Source: Bacillota bacterium | GTDB lineage: Bacteria > Bacillota > Clostridia > Lachnospirales > Lachnospiraceae | Length of the DNA: 64,000 nt | Direction: 5' to 3' | Assembly: GCA_023392535.1 (NCBI GenBank) | Contig: JAEVYY010000004.1 | Location: forward strand, 2,845-66,844 | In this document: positions 8,200 through 23,442 of the stretch, one piece after another | Position numbering within the stretch: position 1 is the stretch's first letter | Layout of the letters: each line of letters starts with the position of its first letter | Program-made: the position numbers and the translations under genes | The notes under the pieces: model-generated | Database searches by the model: none | Seen by the model: only the letters and a program-made list of their open reading frames with translations | Told to the model about the DNA's origin: nothing

Positions 8200-9060
8200 G
8201 TGGCAGGTTTATTAGATGGTTTAGGGCAGTTTGGGTTAGAAAATTTAGAAAGTGCCAGTTTATATGAAAGTCCGGAAGAAAGTGCTCCGGTTGAAAAGTT
8301 AACGCCAGAACAAAAACAGTTACAAAAAGAACAAGATTTTATATTTGATAAGAGTTACTCATGTCCCGTATGTGATCATGAGTTTAAAGTTAAGACCGTA
8401 AAAATTGGCAAGGCAAAGCTGGTAGGAACAGACTTAGACTTGCGTCCTAAGTATGAAGGCATCGATATGCTAAAGTATGATATTGTATTATGCCCTCATT
8501 GCGGTTATGCGGCTTTAAGCAGATATTTTAAGATGCTTTCTCCTTTTCAGGCAAAGAGAATCCGTGAGATCATTTCAAAGTCTTTTAAAGAGCAGAAAGA
8601 GACGAATGAAGTATATTCTTATGAGGAAGCATTGGAAAGATATAAACTTGCGCTTGCAAATACAATTGTTAAGCAAGGAAAGGCAAGTGAAAAAGCATAT
8701 ATTTGTTTAAAAGCAGCGTGGCTCTTACGTGGTAGGAATGAAACGTTCGATTCGAATGATGCCGATTATGAAAAGAAGAAGGCAGAGGGTGAAGCAGAAG
8801 AAAATGAATTTATGCGTAATGCGTTAGAAGGTTTCTTGGCTGCCAGACAGAGTGAGACTTACCCTATGTGCGGTATGGATGAAACAACAGTCGATTATTT
8901 AATTGCGGTCATTGCAATGAATTTTGAGCAATATGATATAGCGACTAAATTAATAACAGGTATACTGGTAGCAAATGGAACGAATCCAAGAATGAAGGAT
9001 AAGGCCAGAGACTTAAGGGATATTTTAATGTCAGCAATTAAAGAACATAAAAAAGTATGA
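8200..9060 (+). CDS. DUF2225-family zinc-ribbon protein
   Basis: CPVC...(37 aa)...CPHCGYAA zinc-ribbon pair followed by a helical C-terminal half, which is the pattern typical of clostridial DUF2225 proteins. GTG start after GGAGG. Confidence 0.6.
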   Translation: MAGLLDGLGQFGLENLESASLYESPEESAPVEKLTPEQKQLQKEQDFIFDKSYSCPVCDHEFKVKTVKIGKAKLVGTDLDLRPKYEGIDMLKYDIVLCPHCGYAALSRYFKMLSPFQAKRIREIISKSFKEQKETNEVYSYEEALERYKLALANTIVKQGKASEKAYICLKAAWLLRGRNETFDSNDADYEKKKAEGEAEENEFMRNALEGFLAARQSETYPMCGMDETTVDYLIAVIAMNFEQYDIATKLITGILVANGTNPRMKDKARDLRDILMSAIKEHKKV

Positions 9061-10478
9061 ATGAATTGACTTTACAATTGGATGTAACTTGTGGAATACA
9101 TCTATATGAACAGATATATGCATACATAAAAAATGAAATTAAAAGAGGGAAGCTTTTGCAAGGAGAAAAGCTTCCCTCAACGCGCGCACTGGCAGACCAT
9201 TTACAAGTATCGAGAAGCACGGTGGATCTTGCGTATGAGCAGTTATCTTCAGAAGGGTATGTGGAAGCCAAGCCTTGTAGCGGATATTATATCTGTAAGA
9301 TAGATAATCTGTACGACCTGCCAGAGGAAACTGCATGTAAGAAAAAAACAAATAATCCTCAAAAAACAATTTATAAAATAGATTTTGCTATGAATGGAAT
9401 TGATATGGAGTCTTTTCCGATTGCTACGTGGAAAAGAGTTTACAAAAATGTATTAAGCAATCAAACAGATGAGCTGTTTCACCTGGGTTCGGCAAAGGGT
9501 GAATTATCTTTAAGGAGAACAATTTGCAGATATCTGTATTCTTCCAGAGGGGTTAACTGTTCTCCGGATCAAGTGATTATTGGAGCTGGAAATGATTATC
9601 TGCTCATTCTACTGGAAAAGATTCTAGGACAAAATAGAATAATAGCAATGGAAGATCCTTCTTATAAAAGAGCTTACCTCGCCTTTGAGTCATGTCATTA
9701 TAAAATTTGTACGATCCCAATGGATAGTAATGGCATACGAGCGGACTTGTTGAGAGACAGTGATGCGAGTATCGCATATGTTATGCCATCCCACCAGTAT
9801 CCAATGGGAGTGGTCATGCCGATTGGCAGGCGAATGGAACTTTTGCATTGGGCTATGGAAGAGAAAGACAGATATATTATTGAAGATGATTATGATAGTG
9901 AATTTCGTTATAAAGGCAAACCGATTCCGTCTTTGCAGGCTTCTGATAAAAATGGTAAAGTCATTTATATTGGGACCTTTTCAAAGTCAATTGCACCAGC
10001 AATTCGTGTCAGTTATATGGTATTGCCGAAGATGTTAATGAATTCATATGAGAGACATGCGTCATTTTTCGCATCGACAGTTTCCAGAACTGATCAGGCG
10101 GTTTTGAATGAATTTATTAAAGAAGGTTTTTACGAGAGACATTTAAATAAAATGAGGAAAAGATATAAGACAAAACATGATTTACTTTTAAATGAATTAA
10201 GATCATTGGAAGATAAATTTTGGATTTCAGGCGATAATGCTGGTCTCCATATACTGCTTCATGCAAAAGATCAAACAAGCGAAAAAGATTTAGTACGTAT
10301 GGCAAAAGAACAACATGTGAGAGTTTATGGTCTGACAGAAACATTTATTAGAAGAAAACAGCCAGAAGCAAAGGCGATAATTTTACTGGGATATGGAGCT
10401 TTGTCAGAAAGAGAAATAGTGAATGGAGTCGATATTCTGCGAAGGACATGGGGGAATATTCCTGATCTTGTTGAGTAG
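9057..10478 (+). CDS. MocR/PdxR-type regulator (GntR wHTH fused to a PLP-dependent aminotransferase-like domain)
   Basis: N-terminal GntR-like HTH (LPSTRALADHLQVSRSTV) and a C-terminal fold-type I aminotransferase domain with a PLP-lysine context (TFSKSIAPAIRVSY). The start overlaps the upstream stop (ATGA). Confidence 0.8.
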   Translation: MNELTLQLDVTCGIHLYEQIYAYIKNEIKRGKLLQGEKLPSTRALADHLQVSRSTVDLAYEQLSSEGYVEAKPCSGYYICKIDNLYDLPEETACKKKTNNPQKTIYKIDFAMNGIDMESFPIATWKRVYKNVLSNQTDELFHLGSAKGELSLRRTICRYLYSSRGVNCSPDQVIIGAGNDYLLILLEKILGQNRIIAMEDPSYKRAYLAFESCHYKICTIPMDSNGIRADLLRDSDASIAYVMPSHQYPMGVVMPIGRRMELLHWAMEEKDRYIIEDDYDSEFRYKGKPIPSLQASDKNGKVIYIGTFSKSIAPAIRVSYMVLPKMLMNSYERHASFFASTVSRTDQAVLNEFIKEGFYERHLNKMRKRYKTKHDLLLNELRSLEDKFWISGDNAGLHILLHAKDQTSEKDLVRMAKEQHVRVYGLTETFIRRKQPEAKAIILLGYGALSEREIVNGVDILRRTWGNIPDLVE

Positions 10479-10490
10479 AAATATTTAAAA

Positions 10491-10516
10491 GCGTAGTCCT
10501 TGGATTACGCTTTTAT
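10491..10516 (+). terminator. rho-independent terminator after the MocR-type gene
   Basis: gcgtagtcc-tt-ggattacgc stem (one G-U pair) followed by TTTTATT. Confidence 0.6.
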
Positions 10517-10627
10517 TGATACGCACTCGCTATCTAGGAAGAAATCCTCCCAATGGCCGGATGCGCTCGGCGCGAGAGTGTGAACCATGCCCACACTCTG
10601 TTTTCAAGACAAAAGCGATAATAGCAC

Positions 10628-10963
10628 CTAAATAGCATTTAAAGAACCGTCCGAATCATCATCTTCATCAAAAAATTCTTCTACTTTTTCTATATTTTCA
10701 GATGTAGAAGCAACTTCTGAATTGTTTTCTTCCGCTGACTTTGCATCATCTAAATTTAAAGAAACATACGACCGTTCTTTTTTAGAACTGTCGTTGGAAG
10801 GTTCCTCATTATCAAGGTCTTCGCTGAAATCGTCAAAATCATCGAAATCATCATCATCCTCGAAATCGTTTTTGCCCTTATTCTGCATATAATAATAAGC
10901 ACCTGCAGCAACTGCACCTACAGCAGCAGTAAACATAAGGAATTTTCCAAATTTTTTAGCCAT
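10628..10963 (-). CDS. hypothetical membrane-anchored, highly acidic protein
   Basis: ATG after AAAGGAG. N-terminal TM segment (FLMFTAAVGAVAAGAYYY), then a D/E-rich low-complexity tail. No family recognised. Confidence 0.5.
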   Translation of the reverse strand: MAKKFGKFLMFTAAVGAVAAGAYYYMQNKGKNDFEDDDDFDDFDDFSEDLDNEEPSNDSSKKERSYVSLNLDDAKSAEENNSEVASTSENIEKVEEFFDEDDDSDGSLNAI

Positions 10964-11217
10964 AAATGTACTCCTTTCATTTAAAATGACAGTATTTGAC
11001 AACTGACAATTTTATTTTTAAAATAATTGTAATACTATTTTACGGAATTGAAAAGAGAATATGCATAAATTTATTTTTATTTCATCAATTGGTAAAAAAA
11101 TGTAGAAAAATTTAAATAGAAAACCAGTAAATGACATTGAATTACAAGAATGGATATGGTATGCTTGGTTTCGACTGCAATAGTCAATAATACAAATGAA
11201 AGTATGAATGATTAAAA

Positions 11218-11838
11218 ATGAATGACAAATTTTTTGATTTAGTGAAAGAGAAGCAAGATAAAATAATTAATGCGGCTTTAAAGATATTTGCGAAAAGTGA
11301 TTATAGAAGATCAAGTACAGATGAAATTGTAAAGGAAGCAGGGATTAGTAAGGGTCTTTTGTTTCACTATTTTAATAGTAAGGCAGGACTTTTTGATTTT
11401 ATATACGCGTATAGTGTAAAATATCTTTCCATAGAACTTTATCAAACAATAAGTATTAAAGAAACGGATTATTTTGAACTGATAGAGCAAATAGTAAATG
11501 CACATTTACGTATTATGAGACAGTATCCTTATATGATAATTTTCCTCAAAAAAGCGGAGGAAGAAGAGGAGGAAGAAGTGGTCTCTTTCATTTCTAAAAA
11601 AAGACAGGATTATAGACAAGAATATAGCAGAATTTTTGCAAGGGCAGATATGTCAGGATTTAAAAAGGACATAAAAATAGAAATGGCTCAAAATATAATA
11701 GCATTTACTATGAAAGGGGTAGAGGATATGTATCTGAAGAAAAGTGAATTTATCCCAGAAGAATTGAGTCAAAGTACCATAGATTATTTAAAAATACTGA
11801 AACCTTTCATGTATGAATTAACGGGGTATAGTGGATAG
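11218..11838 (+). CDS. TetR/AcrR-family transcriptional regulator
   Basis: N-terminal TetR HTH pattern (SSTDEIVKEAGISKGLLFHYFNSK). About 200 aa. Confidence 0.8.
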   Translation: MNDKFFDLVKEKQDKIINAALKIFAKSDYRRSSTDEIVKEAGISKGLLFHYFNSKAGLFDFIYAYSVKYLSIELYQTISIKETDYFELIEQIVNAHLRIMRQYPYMIIFLKKAEEEEEEEVVSFISKKRQDYRQEYSRIFARADMSGFKKDIKIEMAQNIIAFTMKGVEDMYLKKSEFIPEELSQSTIDYLKILKPFMYELTGYSG

Positions 11839-11841
11839 TAT

Positions 11842-12600
11842 TTATTTGGATTGTTTATAAAAGTTAGTGGCGGGATAGCCTCCTGCCATTTTTTGCATCC
11901 CACGCTGAATGGCGTCTTTCGAATTTTTCCAATCTGCATCTTGATTGCGGTAATCAAATTTTTCAATTAGCCATGAAATATCTTCCTGAACACGCTCTAA
12001 ATTTTTATCCATTAGGAGAATCATAGAAGAATAAAATTCTGAAATTTCTTTCTTGGATAATTTGTAATCGGCCATTTCGCATAAATGACCAAAATGATAA
12101 AGGCAAAATCCTTTTGAATTTATTGTCGTATCACGAAAAGCAAGATCCTTTTGATACATCATAAAAAAGGTTTCCAGATAACGTTCATAGGTAGCAGAAT
12201 ACTGGTTGCAGATATAGCAGGATTGTATTCTATCGGCGACAAAGATGCCAATCTCATTTTGGGAAGAAGCTTTTCTGATTTTAGTTGGGAAAAAAGCTTT
12301 ATGAGGCTTATAGTCCTTATATTTTTTCTGCAGTTCCTCACGTAAATTTTGGAAATGGGATTTTAAAATCCATGCATTCCCAAGTGTATTTCCATATTGG
12401 AACATCTTTTGATAGTGATTACGGCAAAATCCCATTTTATCAGTGACTTCTCGTACGTTATTTTGCATATAGGAAGAACCGGAGCCTAAAACGAAGTCCA
12501 GCAAATCTTCTTCTATCTTTTTTTCAATATGGCAAAATGGGCATTCGTCATTTGCCAGAAATGCATCCTTTAGTGGTATGGTATATAATTTTTCACTCAT
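11842..12600 (-). CDS. hypothetical Cys-rich protein with an internally duplicated CxxC...GFCxxH module
   Basis: The pair CPFC ... GFCRNHY is repeated as CYIC ... GFCLYHF about 110 residues later. No enzymatic motif recognised. Confidence 0.5.
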   Translation of the reverse strand: MSEKLYTIPLKDAFLANDECPFCHIEKKIEEDLLDFVLGSGSSYMQNNVREVTDKMGFCRNHYQKMFQYGNTLGNAWILKSHFQNLREELQKKYKDYKPHKAFFPTKIRKASSQNEIGIFVADRIQSCYICNQYSATYERYLETFFMMYQKDLAFRDTTINSKGFCLYHFGHLCEMADYKLSKKEISEFYSSMILLMDKNLERVQEDISWLIEKFDYRNQDADWKNSKDAIQRGMQKMAGGYPATNFYKQSK

Positions 12601-12778
12601 GTTGCTCCTGTGGATTCGTATGTGTTTGATATTTAATTAATTGTAGCGGAAATCGTTTTAAATAGCAACCATATGCAATATCTATTTTATGTAGTTGGCT
12701 TGAAAATCAGATGCAGAAAAGTTATACTTTAAACAGTATCTAAAAATAAGAAATATCTTTTATAGGGGAGTGGAAGTT

Positions 12779-13375
12779 ATGAATAAGAAGATAATTATAA
12801 CAATAGGACGTGAATTTGGCGGAGAAGGTCATGAAATTGGAAAAGAACTTGCTGAAAGATTGGGGATTAAGATGTATGACAAGGATTTGCTTACTATTGC
12901 TTCAAAAAGAAGCGGTCTTGCAGTAGAACATCTTGCCAATGTAGATGAATCCATTACCAATCGTTTTCTGGAGCCTTATTTGGGATTTGGAATTGGAAAT
13001 GATAATTTGAATGATAAGCTATTTGCTGAACAATCACAAATTATTCGTGACATCTCATCCAGAGAATCTTGCATAATAATAGGGAGATGCGCGGATTATA
13101 TTTTAAAAGATGACCCTGATTGTATCCATGCATTTATATATGCACCTTATGAAGTGAGGGTTAATATCATTAAAGAAAAGCACAAAATATCGGAGGAAGC
13201 TGCCAAAAAACTGGTTAAAAAAATGGATCAGGTCAGAAATGGCTACTATACGTATTATGCCGGAAAAGGCTGGAATCGTAAGGAAGGTAAGGACATCCTT
13301 TTGAATAGGGCAAAGTTCGGCGTATCGGGTTGCGTTGCTATTTTGGAAGCTATGGTCATGAACAGAATGCAATAG
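12779..13375 (+). CDS. cytidylate kinase-like family protein
   Basis: N-terminal IIITIGREFGGEGHEIGKELAERLG pattern typical of the cytidylate-kinase-like AAA family. ATG lies 9 nt after AGGGGAG. Confidence 0.65.
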   Translation: MNKKIIITIGREFGGEGHEIGKELAERLGIKMYDKDLLTIASKRSGLAVEHLANVDESITNRFLEPYLGFGIGNDNLNDKLFAEQSQIIRDISSRESCIIIGRCADYILKDDPDCIHAFIYAPYEVRVNIIKEKHKISEEAAKKLVKKMDQVRNGYYTYYAGKGWNRKEGKDILLNRAKFGVSGCVAILEAMVMNRMQ

Positions 13376-13429
13376 CATCATTGGTTTATATTGCATACAA
13401 ATTAGTACAATAAATTATAAGACTTACTA

Positions 13430-13458
13430 TTGACGTAAGAAAAAGATTGTACTATCAT
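13430..13458 (+). promoter_or_regulatory. candidate sigma-70-type promoter (TTGACG-17-TATCAT) for the dat-pxp operon
   Basis: Hexamers with 17-nt spacing, about 120 nt upstream of the dat start. Confidence 0.4.
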
Positions 13459-13489
13459 TTATGTTAAATTAATATTGAAATGATGAATT

Positions 13490-13537
13490 CCACATTTAGA
13501 CAAAGATGTCCTTTTGTTCTGATTGTGGATTTTTTTA
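13490..13537 (+). terminator. terminator-like hairpin inside the 5' leader of the dat-pxp operon (possible attenuator)
   Basis: Long imperfect stem ccacatttagacaaag / ttttgttctgattgtgg, followed directly by ATTTTTTTA. It sits between the candidate promoter and the RBS of dat. Confidence 0.45.
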
Positions 13538-13579
13538 TTTCTTAGAAATATCATTTCAAGCCCGGAAGAGGAGAAAAGA

Positions 13580-14440
13580 ATGAAAACAGTTGGTTATTAC
13601 AATGGTAAAATGGATGAGCTAGAAGCTATGCAAATTCCTATGAACGACAGAGGTATGTATTTTGGAGATGGTGTATATGATGCTACTTACGCCGTTAACA
13701 GAAAAATTTTTGCGCTTGATGATCATATTGATCGTTTTTTTAACAGCTTTCAATTTTTGGAGATTCCGTTTCAATATTCGAAAGAAGAATTGGCAGCAGA
13801 ACTACAAAAATGTGTTGATACAATAGATACAGATGGAACTGTTTTTGTATATTGGCAGACAACAAGGGGAACTGGTATTCGTAATCATGTATTTCCGGAG
13901 GGGAAGCCTAATCTTTTGATTTATATTATAGAATCTGAAATGAAAGATTTATTTACTCCGTTTCGATTAATTACAATGGAAGATGTTCGCTTTTTATTGT
14001 GTAATATTAAGACCTTGAACTTGATTCCAAGTTGTATTGCGAACCAAAGAGCAAAAGAGGCGGGCTGTAATGAGGCAGTTCTTCACAGAGGAGAAAGAGT
14101 CACCGAGTGTGCACATAGTAATATCAATATCTTGAAGAACGGTGTCTTTATTACACCACCAACGGATAATCTGATATTACCTGGAATTACCAGAAAGCAC
14201 CTTTTAATGATTTGCGAAGAAAAAGGAATACCGACAGAGATCAGACCATTTACGTTAACGGAATTATTTGATTGTGATGAAGCTATTGTAAGCAGCTCAG
14301 GTGCATTATGTGTACCGGTATCTGAAATTGATGGAAAGCCTGTTGGCGGTAAAGATAAGGAAACATTATTAAAATTACAAATGGGCTATATTAGAAAGTT
14401 CGAAAAAGAAGTCGGTGCGACAGTTTATAAAAGACCATAA
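13580..14440 (+). CDS. dat: D-amino-acid (D-alanine) aminotransferase, class IV PLP enzyme
   Basis: Class IV aminotransferase blocks (DRGMYFGDGVYD, CNIKTLNLIP with the K in the expected PLP-lysine context, ILPGITR). ATG at 13580 follows GGAGGAG; the ORF-track extension from 13523 is rejected. Confidence 0.75.
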   Translation: MKTVGYYNGKMDELEAMQIPMNDRGMYFGDGVYDATYAVNRKIFALDDHIDRFFNSFQFLEIPFQYSKEELAAELQKCVDTIDTDGTVFVYWQTTRGTGIRNHVFPEGKPNLLIYIIESEMKDLFTPFRLITMEDVRFLLCNIKTLNLIPSCIANQRAKEAGCNEAVLHRGERVTECAHSNINILKNGVFITPPTDNLILPGITRKHLLMICEEKGIPTEIRPFTLTELFDCDEAIVSSSGALCVPVSEIDGKPVGGKDKETLLKLQMGYIRKFEKEVGATVYKRP

Positions 14441-14457
14441 GTGGGGGATATCGGACT

Positions 14458-15540
14458 ATGACGAAGGAAAAATTAGCGGAATTAAATATTGGAGATAATT
14501 TGGATCAGTTAATGAATCTGGATCCCAGAGGTTATGGTGTTTGTAGAATACTCTATGCAGGGAGCAGAGCGTATACAGGAGAACCCCTTACAATGCATGG
14601 TGCAAAGGAACTCATAAATGTGATACGCCAAGGTGATCTTGTATATATCATGACAGGCTTTATATTAAGACCCCACAAAATGCCAGAAATGGATGGCATC
14701 GTAAGTTCGATCCTTCTTTGCAGGGCAATGGTAGAGGCGTTTGACTGTAAACCGGTCATTATATGCCCGGAAGATAATGTGATTGCCGTAAAAAATTGTG
14801 CTCCTGCCATAGGGCTTCACTTATATGAAGATTTTAATGAGTTGTGTGAGTTACCGATGGCTATGGGAGTGATTTCCTTTACAAAAAAGGTAGAGGAGGC
14901 TGATAGTTGTGCAGATTCTATTTTGGGGATGGGACTTCCAAAAGCTTTAATTTCAATTGAAGCACCAGGTGCGAATGAATTTGGGGAATATCACAATGCA
15001 GTAGGTGAGAATATAACGCAGCTGGAAGCAAAAATGGATATTTTATTTGATAGAGTAAAAGAAAAAGGAATTCTTACGTTATCCATTGGTGATTTGGGAA
15101 ATGAAATAGGAATGGGAGTAATTGGTGATCATATCAGAAAATATATTCCTTATACAGATAAAGAGCAATGTAAGTGTGGGTGTAAAGGAGGAATCCTTGC
15201 GCGAACGAAAGCGGATCATATTATTACAGCCACTACATCAGACTGGGGTTGTATGGGTCTTATAGGAGCATTGGCATATCTGTTGAAGAATATTAAGATC
15301 ATGCATGATATCACAATGCAAGCTGAAGTAATGACGATCGCATCAAGGAGTGGAATGATTGATATGACGGGTTCACTTCTGCCGGGCGTCGATGGATTCA
15401 ATATAGATATGAATTGCGCTATCGTAAATCTCATGAGACAATGCGTGGAATATGGAATCGGGTACCAGAATGAGACATGGTTCGTAAACGTATTAAATAA
15501 GAATTTTTACCGATTGGTTAGTGATTCTGTAATTGATTGA
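14458..15540 (+). CDS. DUF4392 / D-glutamate-cyclase-like domain protein
   Basis: 360-aa soluble protein. Assigned from my recollection of the DUF4392 family and from its position between dat and pxpB with 17- and 36-nt gaps. An HMM search is needed to confirm. Confidence 0.55.
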   Translation: MTKEKLAELNIGDNLDQLMNLDPRGYGVCRILYAGSRAYTGEPLTMHGAKELINVIRQGDLVYIMTGFILRPHKMPEMDGIVSSILLCRAMVEAFDCKPVIICPEDNVIAVKNCAPAIGLHLYEDFNELCELPMAMGVISFTKKVEEADSCADSILGMGLPKALISIEAPGANEFGEYHNAVGENITQLEAKMDILFDRVKEKGILTLSIGDLGNEIGMGVIGDHIRKYIPYTDKEQCKCGCKGGILARTKADHIITATTSDWGCMGLIGALAYLLKNIKIMHDITMQAEVMTIASRSGMIDMTGSLLPGVDGFNIDMNCAIVNLMRQCVEYGIGYQNETWFVNVLNKNFYRLVSDSVID

Positions 15541-15576
15541 GAATATGTTGTAAAAGAGACAGGAGAGGATTTGGGC

Positions 15577-16305
15577 ATGAATGAAGTCAGAATTTTAATA
15601 GTTGGGGAATCTGCTTTATGTGTTGAATTTGGCAACCAAATATCAAGTGAAATCAATGCGAACATTAGGGGACTGAATCAGGAAATCAGAAAATACAAAA
15701 TCGCAGGAGTAGTAGAAACGGTGCCTACTTTCCGATCTTTAATGGTGTACTATGATTGCAGAATAATATCCTATAAGAGACTTATAAAAAAAATCGAAAA
15801 ACGGTTAAAAAATCGGATATATGAGCAAATAGAAGAAAAAACAATCGTTGAAATACCGGTGTGTTATGACGATCCTTTTTCACCTGATATGCAGAATGTG
15901 TGTGAGCATACAGGATTAAGCAGAGAAGAAGTGATAGCCATGCATTGCGGAACCGATTATCTGATTTATATGTTGGGATTTTTACCGGGTTTTCCTTATT
16001 TGGGGGGCATGGACGAAAGATTGAATACACCAAGACATGCAATACCACGTGTAAGAATTGAGGCTGGATCCGTGGGGATCGGAGGAGAACAGACTGGTAT
16101 TTATCCCTTGGCATCTCCGGGTGGATGGCAGCTGATTGGAAAAACACCAGTAAAACCATATGATGCAGATAGAGAGAAGCCTTTGTTATATGGTGCAGGT
16201 CAGTATATTCGGTTTATTCGAATAGATGCGGAAGAGTATGCAAGGATCGAGTCGTTGGTATCGAAAAATGCCTATGTATGCAACCATGTAAAAGGAGGAA
16301 CCTGA
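15577..16305 (+). CDS. pxpB: 5-oxoprolinase subunit B (KipI / allophanate hydrolase subunit 1 family)
   Basis: Family blocks VPTFRSLMVYYD, GFLPGFPYLGG and ASPGGWQLIGKTP. Confidence 0.8.
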   Translation: MNEVRILIVGESALCVEFGNQISSEINANIRGLNQEIRKYKIAGVVETVPTFRSLMVYYDCRIISYKRLIKKIEKRLKNRIYEQIEEKTIVEIPVCYDDPFSPDMQNVCEHTGLSREEVIAMHCGTDYLIYMLGFLPGFPYLGGMDERLNTPRHAIPRVRIEAGSVGIGGEQTGIYPLASPGGWQLIGKTPVKPYDADREKPLLYGAGQYIRFIRIDAEEYARIESLVSKNAYVCNHVKGGT

Positions 16306-16306
16306 T

Positions 16307-17248
16307 ATGGGAATTAAAGTCTTACAAGGAGGGGCCTTAACAACGGTGCAAGACGCGGGGCGTATAGGCTATCAAGATACTGGATTTTCGGTTTCTGGTG
16401 TTATGGATTACCGTTCCTTCCGAATGGCTAATATGTTACTAGGAAATGAAGAGAATGAGGCAGTATTGGAAGTTTCCATAATGGGACCAACCATTACTTT
16501 TACCAGGGATAATACGTTTACAATAACGGGCGGTGATTTTTCGGCAGCTCTTAATAATAGAAATATAGATCTTTACACAGCTATACCTGTGAAAAAGGGT
16601 GATACTCTAAGATTAGGTCCTGTTAAAGAAGGTGCACGTGCGTACATTGCCTTTGCAGGAGGAATGGATATCCCTTCTGTAATGGGGAGTAAATCCACCA
16701 ATTTAAAATGCAGGATTGGGGGTCATAAAGGCAGAAAATTAGAAGCTGGAGATGAAATCGCTTTTAAAAACCCAAAACCAATTTTAAGTAATATGTATAA
16801 AAGATATGAGATTGTCAGGGAATTTCAGGAAAAGGACATTACGCTCCGAGTGATTTTGGGTCCACAGATAGAGTATTTTACTAAGGAAGGTATCCGAACC
16901 TTACTGGAATCAGAATATACCGTTTCAGAGGAATATGATCGAATGGGATGCAGGCTTAAAGGTCCAGCCATTAGTAGTATAAATGGTGTGGATATCATAT
17001 CAGATGGAATCGCACTCGGCAGCATTCAAATACCTGCAAGTGGAACACCGATCATAATGATGGCGGACAGACAAACCATCGGTGGATATGCGAAGATTGC
17101 GACCGTTATCCATGTGGATATCCCGAAACTGGCGCAGCGTATGCCAGGGAATAAGATACGCTTTCAGGAGATTACAATAGAGGAAGCTGCAAGACTTTAT
17201 AAAAAGGAAGAAAAAGAATTGAAACGTTTTCTCAAAAGAGTGAATTAA
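16307..17248 (+). CDS. pxpC: 5-oxoprolinase subunit C (KipA / biotin-independent carboxyltransferase-like family)
   Basis: Blocks TTVQDAGRIGYQ, GVMD and GSIQIPASGTPIIMMADRQTIGGY. Starts 1 nt after the pxpB stop. Confidence 0.8.
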   Translation: MGIKVLQGGALTTVQDAGRIGYQDTGFSVSGVMDYRSFRMANMLLGNEENEAVLEVSIMGPTITFTRDNTFTITGGDFSAALNNRNIDLYTAIPVKKGDTLRLGPVKEGARAYIAFAGGMDIPSVMGSKSTNLKCRIGGHKGRKLEAGDEIAFKNPKPILSNMYKRYEIVREFQEKDITLRVILGPQIEYFTKEGIRTLLESEYTVSEEYDRMGCRLKGPAISSINGVDIISDGIALGSIQIPASGTPIIMMADRQTIGGYAKIATVIHVDIPKLAQRMPGNKIRFQEITIEEAARLYKKEEKELKRFLKRVN

Positions 17249-17281
17249 TACTGCCTTTGGCAGTAGACGGGAGTGTGAAAT

Positions 17282-18067
17282 ATGGATTTTAGGAATATGG
17301 CACCAAAAGATGTGCGGGCACGCATTAGAAAGGGAGAGATTCAGAGTCCGACGGCAGGTATGAGTGCTGGATATGCACAGGCAAATTTGGTGGTGCTGCC
17401 AAAAGAACTTGCTTATGATTTTTTATTATTTACACAAAGAAATTCGAAGTCTTGTCCAGTATTAGAAGTATCTGACACCGGAAGCAGAGCGTTGCCGGGA
17501 ATCGCACCTGGTGCTGACATCGCGAATGATATCCCGAAATACCGAGTTTATGAAAATGGTATAATGACGGGTGAGTATACCAGTGTAGCGCACCTTTGGA
17601 GGGATGATTTTGTAAGCTTTTTAATCGGATGCAGCTTTTCTTTTGAATCGGAGTTAATAGAAGCAGGCATTGAGGTAAGACATATTACAGAAGGTTGTAA
17701 TGTTCCCATGTATACAACGAATATAGAATGTGAACCGGCAGGAATTTTTAGTGGCAGGATGGTAGTAAGTATGCGTCCCATTCCATATGGACAAATTGTT
17801 AAGGCTGTTACGGTTACAGGTGCACTGCCGAAAGTACATGGTACACCAATACATATTGGAGATCCTGGTATGATTGGAATTGAAGATGTGAATAGACCTG
17901 ATTTTGGTGATTCCGTAACAATAAAACAGGGAGAAGTTCCTGTTTTCTGGTGCTGCGGAGTTACTCCACAGTCAGTTATAATGAATACAAAACCTAAGTT
18001 TTGCATTACGCATGCCCCTGGACATATGTTGATTACAGATATAAAAAATGTAACATTAAAAATGTGA
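17282..18067 (+). CDS. DUF1445 / UPF0317 putative hydro-lyase (YcsI-like; the same domain is found in animal D-glutamate cyclase)
   Basis: N-terminal signature RARIRKGEIQSPTAGMSAGYAQANLVVLPKELAYDFLLFTQRN. About 260 aa. Confidence 0.75.
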   Translation: MDFRNMAPKDVRARIRKGEIQSPTAGMSAGYAQANLVVLPKELAYDFLLFTQRNSKSCPVLEVSDTGSRALPGIAPGADIANDIPKYRVYENGIMTGEYTSVAHLWRDDFVSFLIGCSFSFESELIEAGIEVRHITEGCNVPMYTTNIECEPAGIFSGRMVVSMRPIPYGQIVKAVTVTGALPKVHGTPIHIGDPGMIGIEDVNRPDFGDSVTIKQGEVPVFWCCGVTPQSVIMNTKPKFCITHAPGHMLITDIKNVTLKM

Positions 18068-18113
18068 GGAATTAGCGGCATGTGTATATAAAAGTATGCA
18101 GATTGGAGCAACT

Positions 18114-18869
18114 ATGTATAAAATTGATTTGAATTGTGACTTAGGCGAGAGCTTTGGTGACTATATTATTGGGATGGATGATTTGGTAATTCCTTACATC
18201 ACATCAGCAAATATTGCTTGTGGCTACCATGCTTCAGATCCTGTGGTAATGTCAAAAACAGTGGCACTTGCAAAGAAAATGGGGGTGTCGGTAGGTGCGC
18301 ACCCGGGACTTCCGGATCTAATGGGTTTTGGAAGAAGAAATATGGACCTATCTCCGGCGGATGCAAAAGCATATGTGATGTATCAGGTGGGAGCGTTAGA
18401 CTCATTTTGCAAAGCAAATAATGTAAAAATGAAACATGTGAAGCCGCATGGTGCGCTCTATAATATGGCAGGAAAGGACTATACGTTGTCAAAAGCAATT
18501 TGTGAAGGGATAAAAGAGGTGAATCCCGAGCTGATACTACTGGGATTGTCGGGAAGTCAGATGCTGATTGCAGCAGAAGAGTTGGGGCTACGTTCTGCAA
18601 AAGAGGTATTTGCAGACAGGGCATATGAAGAGGATGGTTCCTTGGTAGCTAGGACGAAAGAAGGCGCCATGATTATAAACGAGGATTTGGCTGTTAGCAG
18701 AGTGATCCGCATGATCAAAGAGGGCAAAGTAGAAAGCATCACCGGAAAAGATATTTCAATTAGTGCAGATTCTGTATGTGTACATGGAGATGGTGAGAAA
18801 GCACTGGCATTTGTTCAAAAAATAAGAATGACTTTAGAACAAGAAGGTATTCAAATCGCTCCATTTTAA
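18114..18869 (+). CDS. pxpA: 5-oxoprolinase subunit A (LamB/YcsF family)
   Basis: N-terminus MYKIDLNCDLGESFG and ACGYHASDP, typical of LamB/YcsF. ATG at 18114 follows GGAGCA. Confidence 0.85.
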   Translation: MYKIDLNCDLGESFGDYIIGMDDLVIPYITSANIACGYHASDPVVMSKTVALAKKMGVSVGAHPGLPDLMGFGRRNMDLSPADAKAYVMYQVGALDSFCKANNVKMKHVKPHGALYNMAGKDYTLSKAICEGIKEVNPELILLGLSGSQMLIAAEELGLRSAKEVFADRAYEEDGSLVARTKEGAMIINEDLAVSRVIRMIKEGKVESITGKDISISADSVCVHGDGEKALAFVQKIRMTLEQEGIQIAPF

Positions 18870-18934
18870 TCCTTTAAACTTAATAATTCTTGCACCAAAA
18901 TAAACACGTCATACTTCTTCCTTTCCAACAAAAT

Positions 18935-18998
18935 AGGCATCCAAGACGAAATCTTATAGTGTCAAAACACTGTACCTACGATTATGTCTTGGATGCCT
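18935..18998. terminator. two-tier hairpin between convergent pxpA and the AraC gene (possible bidirectional terminator)
   Basis: 13-bp perfect outer stem aggcatccaagac / gtcttggatgcct, enclosing an inner agtgt-caaa-acact hairpin. The flanks are T-rich on the minus strand. Confidence 0.45.
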
Positions 18999-19006
18999 TA
19001 TTGCGT

Positions 19007-19921
19007 TTACTTAATCACCGTAGTTGGAAGTTCTTCAGGCAGCGAGATGATATCGGAAGAGGAACGATAATAGGTAAAATTGGTTGAGCTGTTTTCTGGC
19101 AGGAGCAGGTAATCAGTTGGAGTCTTATTTGTAATCTCTTTGAATACGCGGTTAAAAGTACGGACGTTGTTAAATCCGCACATGTAAGAAATATCAGTAA
19201 TTTTTTTATCTGTAGTCATGAGTAAATCAACAGCCTGTGAAATACGTATCGCATTCAGATATTTCACAAAATTAGTCCCAATCAGCATTTTAAATACTTT
19301 AGAAAAGTGACTGGTGCTAAAATTCATCATCTCGGCAGCGTCTTCAATGGTAATCGTATCGCTGTAATGCTCTTCTAAAAAGGATAAAAGGCTCTGAAAG
19401 TCAGAAAGAACGCTCAAACGGCGATTCATCATAATGGATTTTTGGGTATGGGTCGGGAGGTTACGAAGAAGCTGGTACCAGAATCCGCGTATGGATGCAG
19501 TAACGATATCTTGATAGAATCTGTCTCTATGAGATAACTCTTCATCCAATAAGTAGAGTAAATGATGCCATTCTTCTGCCAGATCCCAGGCATCTAATAC
19601 TTCCTTTTTGATATGGGGATTGGAAAAATAATGGTAGTGATAATGGCTGTTGATAATACCGGTATCAAATAACACAAAATCCAAGCAAGACTTATCACTT
19701 CTTGCATTACAGTAATGAATATCTCCGCTATCACAGACAATCAGATCCCCGGCATTTGCACTGATGGTAAAGTTAGTGACATGTAGCGAGACACTACCTT
19801 GTCTTACGTAGATTAACTCTATTTCTTTGTGCCAATGGGCACGAAAACAAATATCGTGATATTTGTTATGCCAAACCATAAAATCTGATTTATAGTTACG
19901 AATTTCATGAAATGCTTTCAT
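19007..19921 (-). CDS. AraC-family transcriptional regulator (cupin sensor + HTH), divergent from fucI
   Basis: C-terminal AraC HTH (ISYMCGFNNVRTFNRVFKEITNKTPTDY) and an N-terminal cupin-like half. ATG at 19921 follows AAGGGGAGG; the longer ORF-track start is rejected. Confidence 0.8.
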   Translation of the reverse strand: MKAFHEIRNYKSDFMVWHNKYHDICFRAHWHKEIELIYVRQGSVSLHVTNFTISANAGDLIVCDSGDIHYCNARSDKSCLDFVLFDTGIINSHYHYHYFSNPHIKKEVLDAWDLAEEWHHLLYLLDEELSHRDRFYQDIVTASIRGFWYQLLRNLPTHTQKSIMMNRRLSVLSDFQSLLSFLEEHYSDTITIEDAAEMMNFSTSHFSKVFKMLIGTNFVKYLNAIRISQAVDLLMTTDKKITDISYMCGFNNVRTFNRVFKEITNKTPTDYLLLPENSSTNFTYYRSSSDIISLPEELPTTVIK

Positions 19922-20126
19922 CCATGCCTCCCCTTTAAAGGATAAGAATTTTCTACTTTTGTACATTATACACAAAAATAAATGGAAAATCCAACTAAAT
20001 AACAAATAATGTCTATATATGAATACTTATATTCGTGCAAATAAAGAAAGAAATAGTTATAATTGTATGTGAGTAATGAAGGAAATTTAAAGTTATTAGA
20101 CAAAAATAACAATGGAGGTAAGAAAG

Positions 20127-21929
20127 ATGGCAGTAAAGAGAATCGTTGGAGAATATCCGGTAATTGGAATCAGACCTACGATAGATGGAAGGAGAGGTGC
20201 CTTAAAAGTAAGAGAATCCCTGGAAGAACAAACAATGAATATGGCGAGATCAGCAGCCAGATTATTTGAGGATCATTTAAGATATTCGAATGGAGAACCT
20301 GTTAAAGTCATTATTTCAGATACGACCATCGGGCGTGTTGCAGAGGCGGCGGCTTGTGAGGATCAGTTTAAAAAAGCAGGTGTTACAATTACTTTAACAG
20401 TGACACCATGCTGGTGTTATGGATCGGAAACGATGGACATGGATCCGATGACGATAAAGGGCGTATGGGGATTTAATGGGACAGAAAGACCAGGTGCGGT
20501 ATATTTGGCTGCTGTATTAGCCGGACATGCACAAAAAGGATTACCTGCATTTGGTATTTATGGACAGGATGTTCAGGATGCGGATGATACCGATATTCCG
20601 GAAGATGTTAGAAAGAAATTACTTCGTTTCGCTCGCGCAGCGGTAGCGGCGGCAAGTATGAGGGGGAAATCCTATTTACAAATTGGTTCTATCTGCATGG
20701 GGATTGCAGGTTCTATTATTGATGTGGATTTTTTTGAAGAATACCTCGGAATGAGAGTAGAATCCGTAGATGAAGTCGAAATTATACGTAGAATGACTGA
20801 AAATATTTATGACCAAAAAGAATACCAGAAAGCTCTTGCCTGGACCAAGGAAAAATGCAAAGAAGGCTATGATAAAAATCCTGCTTATGCCCAAAAATCT
20901 AGGGAAGAGAAAGATAAGGACTGGGAATTTGTTGTTAAGATGATGTGTATTATTAAAGACCTTATGAATGGAAATAAAAATCTTCCAACAGGATATGAGG
21001 AAGAAATGGTCGGTCATAATGCAATTGCTGCAGGATTTCAAGGACAAAGACAATGGACAGATTTTTATCCGAACTGTGATTTTCCAGAGGCAATGTTAAA
21101 TTCTTCTTTTGATTGGAGCGGAGCAAGAGAACCCTATATTTTGGCTACAGAAAATGATACATTGAATGGCACAGGAATGCTATTTGCTAAATTATTGACA
21201 AATACCGCTCAGATTTTTGCAGATGTCAGAACCTATTGGAGCCCGGAAGCAGTAAAAAAAGCAACTGGATATGAATTGGAGGGAGTAGCGAAGCAATCAG
21301 GAGGTTTCATCCACTTAATTAATTCCGGAGCGGCTTGTCTGGATGCCTGCGGAGAAGTAAAGGATGGAAATGGAAGCGGCATCATCAAGCCATTCTGGGA
21401 AATTTCAGAGCATGATATCGATGCTTGTCTGAAAGCCACGACCTTTAATGCAGCAGATCAGGGATATTTCAGAGGAGGTGGATACTCTTCCAGATTTTTA
21501 ACGAGAGCAGAAATGCCTTGCACTATGATTCGGTTGAATATCGTAAAAGGACTTGGACCGGTTCTTCAGATAGCGGAGGGATGGACTGTGAATTTACCGG
21601 ATGAAGTATCCGATAAGCTGTGGAAAAGAACAGATTATACTTGGCCGTGTACTTGGTTTGCGCCAAGGACAACAGGAACTGGAGCATTTGCAACTGCATA
21701 TGATGTCATGAACAATTGGGGGGCTAACCATGGCGCAATTAGCTACGGGCATATAGGAGCAGACCTAATTACACTGTGTTCTATTCTTCGCATTCCAGTT
21801 TGCATGCATAATGTTCCAGAGGAAGATATTTTCAGGCCTGCCGTCTGGAATGCCTTTGGTATGGACAAAGAAGGGCAGGATTTTAGAGCATGCCATACAT
21901 ATGGACCAATGTATAAGACAATGCGATAA
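20127..21929 (+). CDS. fucI: L-fucose isomerase
   Basis: About 600 aa. N-terminal [12 protein letters not shown] block and overall FucI-like length. ATG at 20127 follows GGAGGT. Confidence 0.85.
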
Positions 21930-21944
21930 AATAGGAGCAGTATC

Positions 21945-23429
21945 ATGGGAAAAGAAAAAAGAGTACTTGCGTTTGATTACGGCGCAAGCAGCGGCAGGGC
22001 AATTATCGGTAAATTTGATGGAGAAAGTATTACATTAGAAGAAATACATCGATTTGCAAATGAGCCAGTAACGGTAAAAGGAACCGTGTATTGGGATATT
22101 TTACGTTTATACCATGAGCTCAAGCAAGGGCTTATAAAGGCTAAACTTTACGGTGGTGTTGACAGTATCGGAATCGATACATGGGGAGTGGATTTTGGTC
22201 TATTGGAGACAAGAGGTAATCTGATCGAGAATCCAGTTCATTATAGAGATGGTAGAACCAAAGGCATGTTGGAGGAAAGCTTCCGATCGCTTGAGAAGGA
22301 TATTTTTTATGAGATTACTGGAAATCAGTTTATGGAACTCAACACAGCATTCCAATTATTATCCATTGTGAAAAATAGGCCGGAGCTCTTAGCAAGGACT
22401 GATAAACTACTATTGATTCCAGATCTTTTGAATTACTTTTTGACTGGAATAAAAAGGGCTGAATGTTCCATCGCATCTACTACACAGCTAATGAATATAA
22501 AAGAAAAGTGCTGGTCAAAACAAGTGCTGGAATCCTTGCAGATTCCTGGTCATATTTTTCCACAGATCATAAAGAGCGGCACCAGACTTGGCAAGTTGCT
22601 TCCAGAGGTATGCGAAGAATTAGAGATAGGAAGTATGGATGTCATCGCTGTTGCCAGCCATGATACACAGAGCGCACTTGTCAGCGTTCCTGCAGAGGAA
22701 GAAGATTTTATTTTTATTAGTTGCGGTACGTGGTCGCTTTTTGGAACAGAGGTTTCTACACCTATTATCAATGCCAAATCGGCTCAAATGAATATCACTA
22801 ATGAATTAGGAGCAGAAGGAAAAGTATCTTTTTTAAAAAATATTATTGGATTGTGGCTCATACAGGAAAGCAGACGTCAATGGAGCCGTGAAGGGAAAGA
22901 ATATGCCTTTGGAGAGCTCGATAAAATGGCGTCAGAGGAAGAGGCATTTCGGTGCTTTATCGATCCGGATGCACCTGAATTTGTAATGGCAGGAAATATA
23001 CCCAAAAGAATACGTGCTTTCTGCGAAAGAACAGGACAGAGGAGTCCAGAAACGCCAGGTCAGTTCGTAAGATGCATTCATGAAAGTCTTGCATTTAAGT
23101 ATCGTGATACCTTATTCGAAATTCAGGCTTGTACAGGAAAAGAATATGAGAGTATTTATATAGTAGGAGGCGGTACAAAAAGCAGGCTGCTTAGTCAAAT
23201 GACAGCAAATGCCTGTCATAAAAAGGTATCGTCCGGACCGATAGAAGCAACGGTATATGGAAATATCGCTTTGCAATTAATTGCGGCAGGAAAAATAAAA
23301 GATATAAAAGATGCCAGAAAAAAGATCAGAGACTCTGCAAAAATTCAAATGTTCTTACCACAAGAAAAAGAGGTATGGGAAAATGCTTATCAGCGATATC
23401 AAGAAGTGGTTTTGAATACAGCAAGATAA
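21945..23429 (+). CDS. fucK: FGGY-family sugar kinase, rhamnulokinase-like; L-fuculokinase by context
   Basis: FDYGASSGR N-terminal ATPase motif and GIDTWGVDF. It is a paralog of the rhaB-like gene at 55716 and lies immediately downstream of fucI. Confidence 0.7.
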   Translation: MGKEKRVLAFDYGASSGRAIIGKFDGESITLEEIHRFANEPVTVKGTVYWDILRLYHELKQGLIKAKLYGGVDSIGIDTWGVDFGLLETRGNLIENPVHYRDGRTKGMLEESFRSLEKDIFYEITGNQFMELNTAFQLLSIVKNRPELLARTDKLLLIPDLLNYFLTGIKRAECSIASTTQLMNIKEKCWSKQVLESLQIPGHIFPQIIKSGTRLGKLLPEVCEELEIGSMDVIAVASHDTQSALVSVPAEEEDFIFISCGTWSLFGTEVSTPIINAKSAQMNITNELGAEGKVSFLKNIIGLWLIQESRRQWSREGKEYAFGELDKMASEEEAFRCFIDPDAPEFVMAGNIPKRIRAFCERTGQRSPETPGQFVRCIHESLAFKYRDTLFEIQACTGKEYESIYIVGGGTKSRLLSQMTANACHKKVSSGPIEATVYGNIALQLIAAGKIKDIKDARKKIRDSAKIQMFLPQEKEVWENAYQRYQEVVLNTAR

Positions 23430-23442
23430 GGAATAAGAATAT

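Follow-up and report, generated by a model that had tools for sequence, protein, structure and literature searches.

The ATP-dependent 5-oxoprolinase PxpABC is encoded by clustered genes in Escherichia coli (ybgJKL), Bacillus subtilis (ycsF-kipI-kipA), Clostridioides difficile (kipOTIA), and Corynebacterium glutamicum (pxpTABC). The B. subtilis operon, which has the gene order pxpA-mntG-ycsI-pxpB-pxpC, includes a gene of the DUF1445 family, ycsI (PMC10448178). The D-glutamate cyclase of animals is a fusion of a DUF1445 and a DUF4392 domain (PMC5339696, PMC5132392), and the mouse fusion protein, which acts neither as a racemase nor as an oxidase, converts D-glutamate to 5-oxo-D-proline (PMC5339696). 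Genes of all these families, together with one for a D-amino-acid aminotransferase (Dat), form a single cluster in a 64,000-nucleotide stretch of a Lachnospiraceae genome (Bacillota bacterium, GenBank assembly GCA_023392535.1, contig JAEVYY010000004.1, positions 2,845 to 66,844), which was analysed at its full length and is called the window below. We propose, with a probability of about one half, that this locus is an operon, inducible by its substrate, for the catabolism or salvage of D-glutamate as well as 5-oxo-D-proline, and probably also of 5-oxo-L-proline; within it, the two DUF proteins would act on the D-forms and PxpABC on the L-lactam. An earlier annotation of the window from its letters alone, referred to here as the sequence-only reading, had named both the DUF1445 gene of the B. 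subtilis operon and the domain composition of the animal enzyme, and the literature bears out the two statements (for the former, PMC10448178 and bioRxiv 10.1101/2024.05.01.592088).

The cluster consists of six open reading frames on the forward strand in the order dat, DUF4392, pxpB, pxpC, DUF1445, and pxpA (Table 1). The gaps between them, from dat to pxpA, are 17, 30, 1, 33, and 28 nucleotides (nt) long; the second becomes 36 nt with the ATG at 15577 and the last 46 nt with the ATG at 18114, which are the starts in the public gene calls on the identical contig. The start codon of dat at 13580 is preceded by a good ribosome-binding site, GGAAGAGGAG. A consensus scan detected no terminator-like site inside the cluster. 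Gene order, strand, gap lengths of 1-46 nt, and the lack of an internal terminator had all been given correctly in the sequence-only reading.

The locus shares with the described PxpABC systems the same three protein families encoded in a cluster, and with the B. subtilis operon the placement of a DUF1445 gene among the pxp genes. It differs from them in that it has no NRAMP or PxpT transporter gene and contains in addition genes for DUF4392, Dat, and a PF13189 protein, whereas its relatives carry a Liv-type ATP-binding cassette (ABC) importer, alanine racemase (Alr), and sometimes biotin carboxyl carrier protein (BCCP) and biotin carboxylase. Both domains of the mammalian cyclase DGLUCY (C14orf159, EC 4.2.1.48), PF07286 and PF14336, are present at full length in the window cluster. 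However, they are encoded by separate genes with pxpB and pxpC between them, and their cyclase activity is a prediction; in Clostridium sensu stricto, the two domain genes adjoin, in the order opposite to that in the fusion. The proposed pathway would resemble DgcN-DgcA of marine Proteobacteria (Yu et al. 2023) in being a dedicated bacterial use of D-glutamate that bypasses glutamate racemase. DgcN-DgcA are recounted in PMC12363236 as an N-acetyltransferase and an N-acetyl-D-glutamate racemase, and, to the extent that they are described there, they are wholly different enzymes without homology to any gene of the window cluster.

The conservation of the cluster was assessed in 80 loci, which were fetched with an alignment of 18 homologues of the window DUF4392 protein (alignment A1) from one-genome-per-species bacterial collections, out of 499 confirmed relatives. 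The six proteins of the window were placed on these loci by tblastn. The linkage of dat to the cluster is conserved in relatives and thus does not refute the sequence-only reading: in 63 of the 77 loci with enough sequence, dat is the gene immediately upstream of DUF4392. All of pxpA, pxpB, pxpC, and DUF1445 are found downstream of DUF4392 in 61 of 67 loci, and the clustering of the three pxp subunit genes, which extend over 15571-18869 on one strand of the window, is kept in 62 of 67. The carriers are species representatives of Lachnospiraceae, Clostridium sensu stricto, Intestinibacillus, and Schwartzia; they include metagenome-assembled genomes from water deer, dairy cattle, rabbit, Hadza (human), and other sources, as well as cultured isolates. 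Cultured carriers are, for example, Clostridium saccharobutylicum, C. neonatale, Mobilisporobacter senegalensis DSM 26537, and Lacrimispora. Many Clostridia of gut and soil share the cluster. The gene order is shared by dozens of species and is therefore far beyond chance.

The commonest architecture, which occurs as one exact gene string in 31 loci and in addition as close variants, has the order substrate-binding protein, two permeases, two ATPases, PF13189, dat, DUF4392, pxpB, pxpC, DUF1445, and pxpA. A second architecture, from Clostridium sensu stricto and Intestinibacillus, has the order AsnC/Lrp regulator, dat, DUF4392, DUF1445, pxpA, alanine racemase, pxpB-like, and pxpC-like. Ten loci contain the five-gene core without dat. 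Beyond the ABC importer on one side and pxpA on the other, the genes vary by lineage and encode GGDEF proteins, chaperonin, two-component systems, thiolase, or flavodiiron protein. The conserved neighbours, inspected for clues to the substrate, include no peptidoglycan peptidase and no pyroglutamyl peptidase. In three related Lachnospiraceae (L025, L026, and L027), a DUF4392 gene at about 10001-11065 stands without its companions beside a gene for a RecQ-like helicase. Two of these loci end at the DUF4392 gene, and L027 continues with no pxp genes following. The three loci probably represent a broken or relocated cluster.

Profile searches place the two DUF proteins in the families named in the sequence-only reading, which is not refuted on this point either. 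The DUF4392 protein matches PF14336 (GLUCM-like_C, formerly DUF4392) with 290.5 bits over profile positions 1-291 of 291, and the DUF1445 protein matches PF07286 (D-Glu_cyclase, formerly DUF1445) with 232.9 bits over positions 1-143 of 143. The DUF4392 residues E77, D79, E168, D212, E216, and D312 align with E59, D61, E115, D157, E161, and D246 of TON_0340, a Mn2+-dependent DUF4392 protein from Thermococcus onnurineus, whose crystal structures define these six acidic residues as metal ligands (PMC5132392). All six ligands are invariant in alignment A1. TON_0340 is also the sole fold match in the PDB of the predicted model of the window protein (pLDDT 85), with a target-normalised TM score of about 0.84 and about 22% identity in the structural alignment. 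Assigning a function to DUF4392 from its fold was rejected, as TON_0340 was the only match and the other hits were Rossmann-like noise. TON_0340 has no DUF1445 partner because homologues of DUF1445 (Atu3911) were not found in archaea (PMC5132392). The window protein is about 90 residues longer than TON_0340 and contains a CxCxC insert (C238, C240, and C242), which is invariant in clostridial DUF4392 proteins and absent from TON_0340. Together with C29, C103, and C114, the clostridial subfamily has six invariant cysteines, and the CxCxC insert may form an additional site for a metal or for redox chemistry.

With 1,456 representatives at 50% clustering, the DUF4392 family is small, and no fusion-sized protein was found among the 150 best family representatives, none of which exceeds 385 residues. 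Distant members with about 30% identity are encoded on rhizobial and Rhodobacterales replicons without pxp genes. From such contexts, the family would clearly have further roles outside of Pxp-type pathways. As separate observations, a plasmid of Roseinatronobacter (L083, 7016-9153) carries two tandem DUF4392 paralogues whose neighbours are a LysR regulator and a tripartite tricarboxylate transporter, and a Rhizobium locus (L082) has DUF4392 among genes for a Gfo/Idh/MocA oxidoreductase and sugar isomerase.

The DUF1445 protein scores 417 bits with the model NF003969, "putative hydro-lyase" (cutoff 324). Its matches in the PDB are 2PIF (E 6e-95, 54% identity) and 3DB9 (E 7e-93, 49% identity; both identities from structural alignment), which are structural-genomics entries without an assigned function. 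Neither the PDB profile search nor the fold search found other relatives, and the result of the latter is weak because the predicted model is poor (pLDDT 59). Two invariant cysteines, C117 and C225, lie in the motifs GCSF (within LIGCSFSFE) and CGVTPQ (within FWCCGVTPQ), are conserved from Clostridia to Pseudomonas and Agrobacterium, and are candidate catalytic residues. These cysteines recall the two-cysteine Asp/Glu/hydantoin racemases, but an assignment of DUF1445 as such a racemase is not supported by the PDB profile and fold searches, which return 2PIF and 3DB9 only. It is also disfavoured by the mammalian enzyme, which yields the D-lactam and has no racemase activity (PMC5339696). On Lactobacillus and Klebsiella plasmids, DUF1445 is accompanied by pxpA, carboxyltransferase genes of the PxpB/C-like kind, genes for BCCP and biotin carboxylase, and an NRAMP transporter, and neither DUF4392 nor dat was seen in these plasmid clusters. 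DUF1445 occurs in both the B. subtilis operon and the plasmid clusters, and is therefore a general companion of Pxp-type genes.

The three Pxp subunits are assigned by domain and subunit models. PxpA scores 339.7 bits with PF03746 and 369 bits with NF003814 (cutoff 226), PxpB scores 256 bits with PF02682 and 214.4 bits with TIGR00370 (cutoff 145.55), and PxpC scores 319 bits with PF02626 and 308.8 bits with the domain model TIGR00724 (cutoff 230). With the equivalog model NF045499, PxpC reaches 248.9 bits and is below the cutoff of 500. The identities of PxpA, PxpB, and PxpC to the E. coli proteins are 46%, 39%, and 34%. The subunits are closer to the set encoded on a plasmid of Levilactobacillus brevis, which carries DUF1445 (60%, 44%, and 41%), and window PxpA is 60-69% identical to PxpA of other DUF1445-containing clusters. 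The kipOTIA locus of C. difficile, which lacks pxpI (ycsI/DUF1445), supports the use of 5-oxo-L-proline, and its deletion abolishes growth on 5-oxoproline (bioRxiv 10.1101/2024.05.01.592088). There is also no DUF1445 gene beside the pxpBCA locus of E. coli. DUF1445 is accordingly dispensable for the use of L-5-oxoproline. Therefore, the DUF proteins add something beyond an L-oxoprolinase. Paralogues of PxpABC in Pseudomonas putida differ in lactam specificity, and some act on butyrolactam (bioRxiv 10.1101/2021.12.09.472016).

The contribution of the DUF proteins could be explained by a five-protein, D-specific, ATP-dependent 5-oxo-D-prolinase, in which PxpABC is a paralogue specialised for the D-lactam and the DUF proteins serve as its specificity or coupling subunits instead of a separate cyclase, and from which Dat takes D-glutamate to 2-oxoglutarate. 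We consider this arrangement possible but doubtful. It would account for the interleaving of the DUF and pxp genes in the fixed order DUF4392-pxpB-pxpC-DUF1445-pxpA in most species and for the persistence of the five-gene core in the loci without dat. It is also consistent with the existence of Pxp paralogues with other lactam specificities and with the window subunits being only 34-46% identical to the validated E. coli L-enzyme, compared with 41-60% to the DUF1445-bearing L. brevis set. The coupling to ATP would overcome the unfavourable equilibrium of lactam hydrolysis. However, a futile, ATP-consuming cycle would result if the DUF pair retains the ATP-independent cyclase activity of its animal homologue, and no sequence feature is known to set stereospecificity. 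Put more generally, DUF4392, PxpB, PxpC, DUF1445, and PxpA may, with a rather low probability, be one machine, which would be either the first D-specific ATP-dependent 5-oxoprolinase or a device that turns the pool of D-glutamate plus 5-oxo-D-proline into usable glutamate.

The dat product belongs to the class IV aminotransferases (Aminotran_4, 152.9 bits). Its best NCBIfam model is TIGR01121, D-amino-acid transaminase, which outscores the models of branched-chain aminotransferase and aminodeoxychorismate lyase. The top match in the PDB is the Bacillus D-amino-acid aminotransferase 1DAA (E 2e-50), whose residues Y31, R98, H100, K145, E177, and L201 correspond to Y33, R101, H103, K144, E176, and L200 of window Dat. 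The catalytic lysine (K144) and glutamate (E176) and the Tyr/Arg/His carboxylate trap of D-amino-acid aminotransferases are retained. Window Dat shares these features and the type IV fold with Bacillus Dat (1DAA, 3DAA), but it is encoded in a probable catabolic operon instead of standing alone.

Additional genes recur around the cluster. A PF13189 protein (167.5 bits) is encoded upstream of dat in the window, and in 41 of 75 related loci its orthologue is the gene immediately upstream of dat. In 20 loci, the stop codon of the PF13189 gene overlaps the start of dat by 4 nt. In the window, the two genes are separated by a 204-nt gap, which possibly contains an internal promoter-like site. A canonical Walker A motif is absent from an alignment of 42 PF13189 members, and a role for the protein in the pathway would be conjectural. 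Because the PF13189 gene belongs to the conserved cluster, the unit in the window probably has seven genes. The six-gene operon of the sequence-only reading is thus right in its genes and too narrow in its limits, which in relatives also take in an importer. A Liv/HAAT-type amino-acid ABC importer, confirmed with Pfam, is attached in 38 of 62 loci, and the PDB relatives of its binding protein are binders of the Leu/Ile/Val type and the amino-acid/amide type; one such binding protein is encoded at 3726-4940 of L045. Alanine racemase is present in 9 of 67 loci and an AsnC/Lrp regulator in 7 of 75; in the Clostridium version, the racemase gene lies within the cluster. An inducible pathway for D-amino acids would explain the importer, the AsnC regulator, and the embedded Alr better than housekeeping of the cell wall does. 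These genes strengthen the D-amino-acid theme of the sequence-only reading, whose interpretation is partly supported.

A housekeeping function has to be considered, since Dat is the biosynthetic source of D-glutamate in Bacillus species, and Alr together with Dat is a known route to it. The locus would then be an ordinary operon for repair and utilisation of L-5-oxoproline, of the B. subtilis pxpA-ycsI-pxpBC type, co-transcribed with a biosynthetic Dat and sometimes Alr, which supply D-glutamate and D-alanine for peptidoglycan; the link between the two parts would be the upkeep of the glutamate pool and not the catabolism of a D-lactam. PxpA and PxpB pass the NCBIfam cutoffs for 5-oxoprolinase subunits, and in bacteria with a known use of L-5-oxoproline, DUF1445 is found together with pxp genes (PMC10448178). 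Nevertheless, one would not expect an amino-acid ABC importer and an AsnC/Lrp regulator ahead of genes for cell-wall housekeeping. DUF4392 would be left without a role, even though no other gene is linked to dat as tightly (63 of 77 loci), and a homologue of D-glutamate cyclase would drain the D-glutamate being made. We therefore regard a housekeeping operon as improbable.

Genes for BCCP and biotin carboxylase follow the PxpB/C-like genes in C. saccharobutylicum and four other loci (L042, L056, L071, L073, and L086, the last at 13092-16651); neither has a match anywhere in the window. The same pair follows PxpB/C-like genes on the Lactobacillus and Klebsiella plasmids (L084 and L085), together with DUF1445 and pxpA. 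The composition of these clusters points to a variant of Pxp-type lactam opening that depends on both biotin and ATP, and no description of such a variant was found in the literature. Variants of this kind make it a question how the opening of lactams is coupled to ATP by Pxp-type enzymes. They also hint at chemistry beyond that of the classic oxoprolinase. Dat enzymes have a broad D-amino-acid range. The substrate might thus be another lactam or cyclic amide that gives a D-amino acid other than glutamate, for example the six-membered 6-oxopipecolate with D-2-aminoadipate or a substituted pyrrolidone, with biotin-dependent carboxylation and hydrolysis in some species. The activity of P. putida Pxp paralogues on butyrolactam (bioRxiv 10.1101/2021.12.09.472016) and the score of PxpC under its equivalog cutoff would agree with a different substrate, but the sole activity known for a DUF1445 and DUF4392 pair is on D-glutamate/5-oxo-D-proline (PMC5339696). 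In addition, PxpA and PxpB score as 5-oxoprolinase subunits, and the neighbouring genes suggest no other candidate substrate, which leaves this explanation with little likelihood.

Based on the gene content of the cluster and its relatives, a mechanism for the favoured D-glutamate salvage operon can be proposed. In most relatives, the Liv/HAAT-type ABC system would import the amino acid or its lactam. The five-gene core of DUF4392, PxpB, PxpC, DUF1445, and PxpA would interconvert the lactam and open-chain glutamate, with the work probably split by enantiomer. DUF1445 and DUF4392 would form a bacterial, split D-glutamate cyclase, and PxpABC would be the ATP-driven opener of 5-oxo-L-proline. A freely reversible D-glutamate cyclase next to an ATP-driven D-oxoprolinase would constitute a futile cycle, which would be avoided by the division of labour between the enantiomers. 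A Pxp set that is itself specific for the D-lactam comes close to this division in likelihood. Dat would move the amino group of D-glutamate to pyruvate, producing 2-oxoglutarate and D-alanine, and this drain on D-glutamate would make the DUF pair work towards hydrolysis. D-alanine would then be racemised by Alr, whose gene belongs to the cluster in Clostridium sensu stricto and presumably lies elsewhere in the genome of the window. The sequence-only reading had stated that the route needs no racemase; this is correct for glutamate only, since the D-alanine formed by Dat still requires Alr, which some of the clusters carry.

Several points weigh against a D-glutamate salvage operon. The equilibrium between glutamate and 5-oxoproline favours the lactam, as is known from Meister-era work, and hydrolysis of 5-oxo-D-proline that is not driven by ATP would therefore need a strong pull from Dat. 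With TIGR01121, Dat scores 229.4 bits, below the equivalog cutoff of 277.45, and its preference for D-amino acids is predicted. For TON_0340, only a weak phosphatase activity was seen (PMC5132392), and the distant DUF4392 genes of alpha-proteobacteria are located in sugar-type or tricarboxylate-transporter contexts. DUF1445 is present in Pxp-type clusters in which neither DUF4392 nor dat is seen (the B. subtilis operon and the plasmids of L. brevis and Klebsiella), and its role may therefore be generic to lactam opening and not D-specific. Finally, no linked transporter is present in the window itself.

Table 1. Features of the pxp-dat locus, in window coordinates.
Feature	Position	Strand	Family or evidence	Remark
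PF13189 cytidylate-kinase-like gene	12770..13375	+	Pfam	degenerate P-loop; probable first gene of the unit
Sigma-70-like promoter match TTGACG-17-TATCAT	13430..13458	+	consensus scan, 10/12 matches	upstream of dat; consensus match only
dat, class IV (fold-type IV) aminotransferase	13580..14440	+	PF01063, TIGR01121	D-amino-acid aminotransferase type
DUF4392 / GLUCM-like_C	14458..15540	+	PF14336	predicted di-metal enzyme
pxpB, CT_C_D	15571..16305	+	PF02682, TIGR00370	KipI-type subunit; public call starts at ATG 15577
pxpC, CT_A_B	16307..17248	+	PF02626, TIGR00724	KipA-type subunit
DUF1445 / YcsI	17282..18067	+	PF07286, NF003969	"putative hydro-lyase"
pxpA, LamB/YcsF	18096..18869	+	PF03746, NF003814	lactamase-type subunit; public call starts at ATG 18114
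Long hairpin, 71 nt	18932..19002		RNA fold	between the convergent pxpA and AraC-family genes

The hairpin downstream of pxpA has a folding energy of -34.5 kcal/mol (z = -7.5 relative to shuffled sequences) and is a probable bidirectional terminator closing the operon. It was overlooked by the simple terminator scan because its loop is long. No Rfam match with E <= 1 was found in 12500-20300, and the idea that dat is preceded by a riboswitch or another leader RNA was rejected on this ground. The GC content is 0.33-0.44 in the cluster and 0.25-0.45 in its flanks. Horizontal transfer of the cluster was considered; its composition, which is within the range of the flanks, shows no sign of it. There is no second pxp or dat set or transporter elsewhere in the window, and the ABC genes, at about 28.6-31.6 kilobases, are of an unrelated sugar type only.

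The region 19007-25236 downstream of the operon encodes an AraC-family regulator (reverse strand), L-fucose isomerase, an FGGY sugar kinase, and a Cache-domain histidine kinase. It is a fucose-type utilisation cluster unrelated to the pxp locus. Upstream, at 8200-12600, are genes for a DUF2225 protein, a MocR/PdxR-like GntR-aminotransferase regulator (9057-10478), a small acidic membrane-anchored protein, a TetR regulator, and a DUF6062 protein (reverse strand). A similar small acidic protein recurs upstream of dat in relatives, accompanied by DUF6062 in L006 and by a TetR regulator in L063, which indicates local synteny and not function.

The PxpABC enzyme, Dat, and the two domain families of DGLUCY are known; their combination, its conservation, and its added genes are described in none of the papers searched and together constitute a well-supported comparative-genomic hypothesis of a pathway. 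The sequence-only reading had supposed that the pathway is uncharacterised, and no description of a bacterial DUF1445/DUF4392/pxp/dat pathway was found in full-text literature searches, whose reach excluded Niehaus 2017, Yu 2023, and Katane 2018. The nearest mention is a table in a G3 paper from 2025, which lists six "split" homologues of human DGLUCY from gut bacteria without comment. A 2025 paper centred on a curated database of genes for D-amino-acid metabolism mentions no cyclase in its text.

All bacterial cell walls contain D-glutamate as a major component, and 5-oxo-D-proline is the compound that mammals make from D-glutamate and excrete (PMC5339696). Few bacterial routes of D-glutamate consumption are known (PMC12363236), and none based on a cyclase was found in the literature. 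If the five core proteins are one machine, then with Dat and the importer they would constitute a new pathway of gut Clostridia for harvesting peptidoglycan-derived D-glutamate and animal-made 5-oxo-D-proline. This would provide both DUF families with a physiological role and give a reason for their fusion in animals. As a D-glutamate and 5-oxoproline salvage operon, the cluster is a candidate nutrient-scavenging pathway of the gut, present in many Lachnospiraceae and Clostridium species, some of which are cultured. It offers a concrete role assignment for DUF4392 and for DUF1445/YcsI, which has long been unexplained in pxp operons. Since the two halves are separate genes here, they can reveal which half of the animal D-glutamate cyclase does what.

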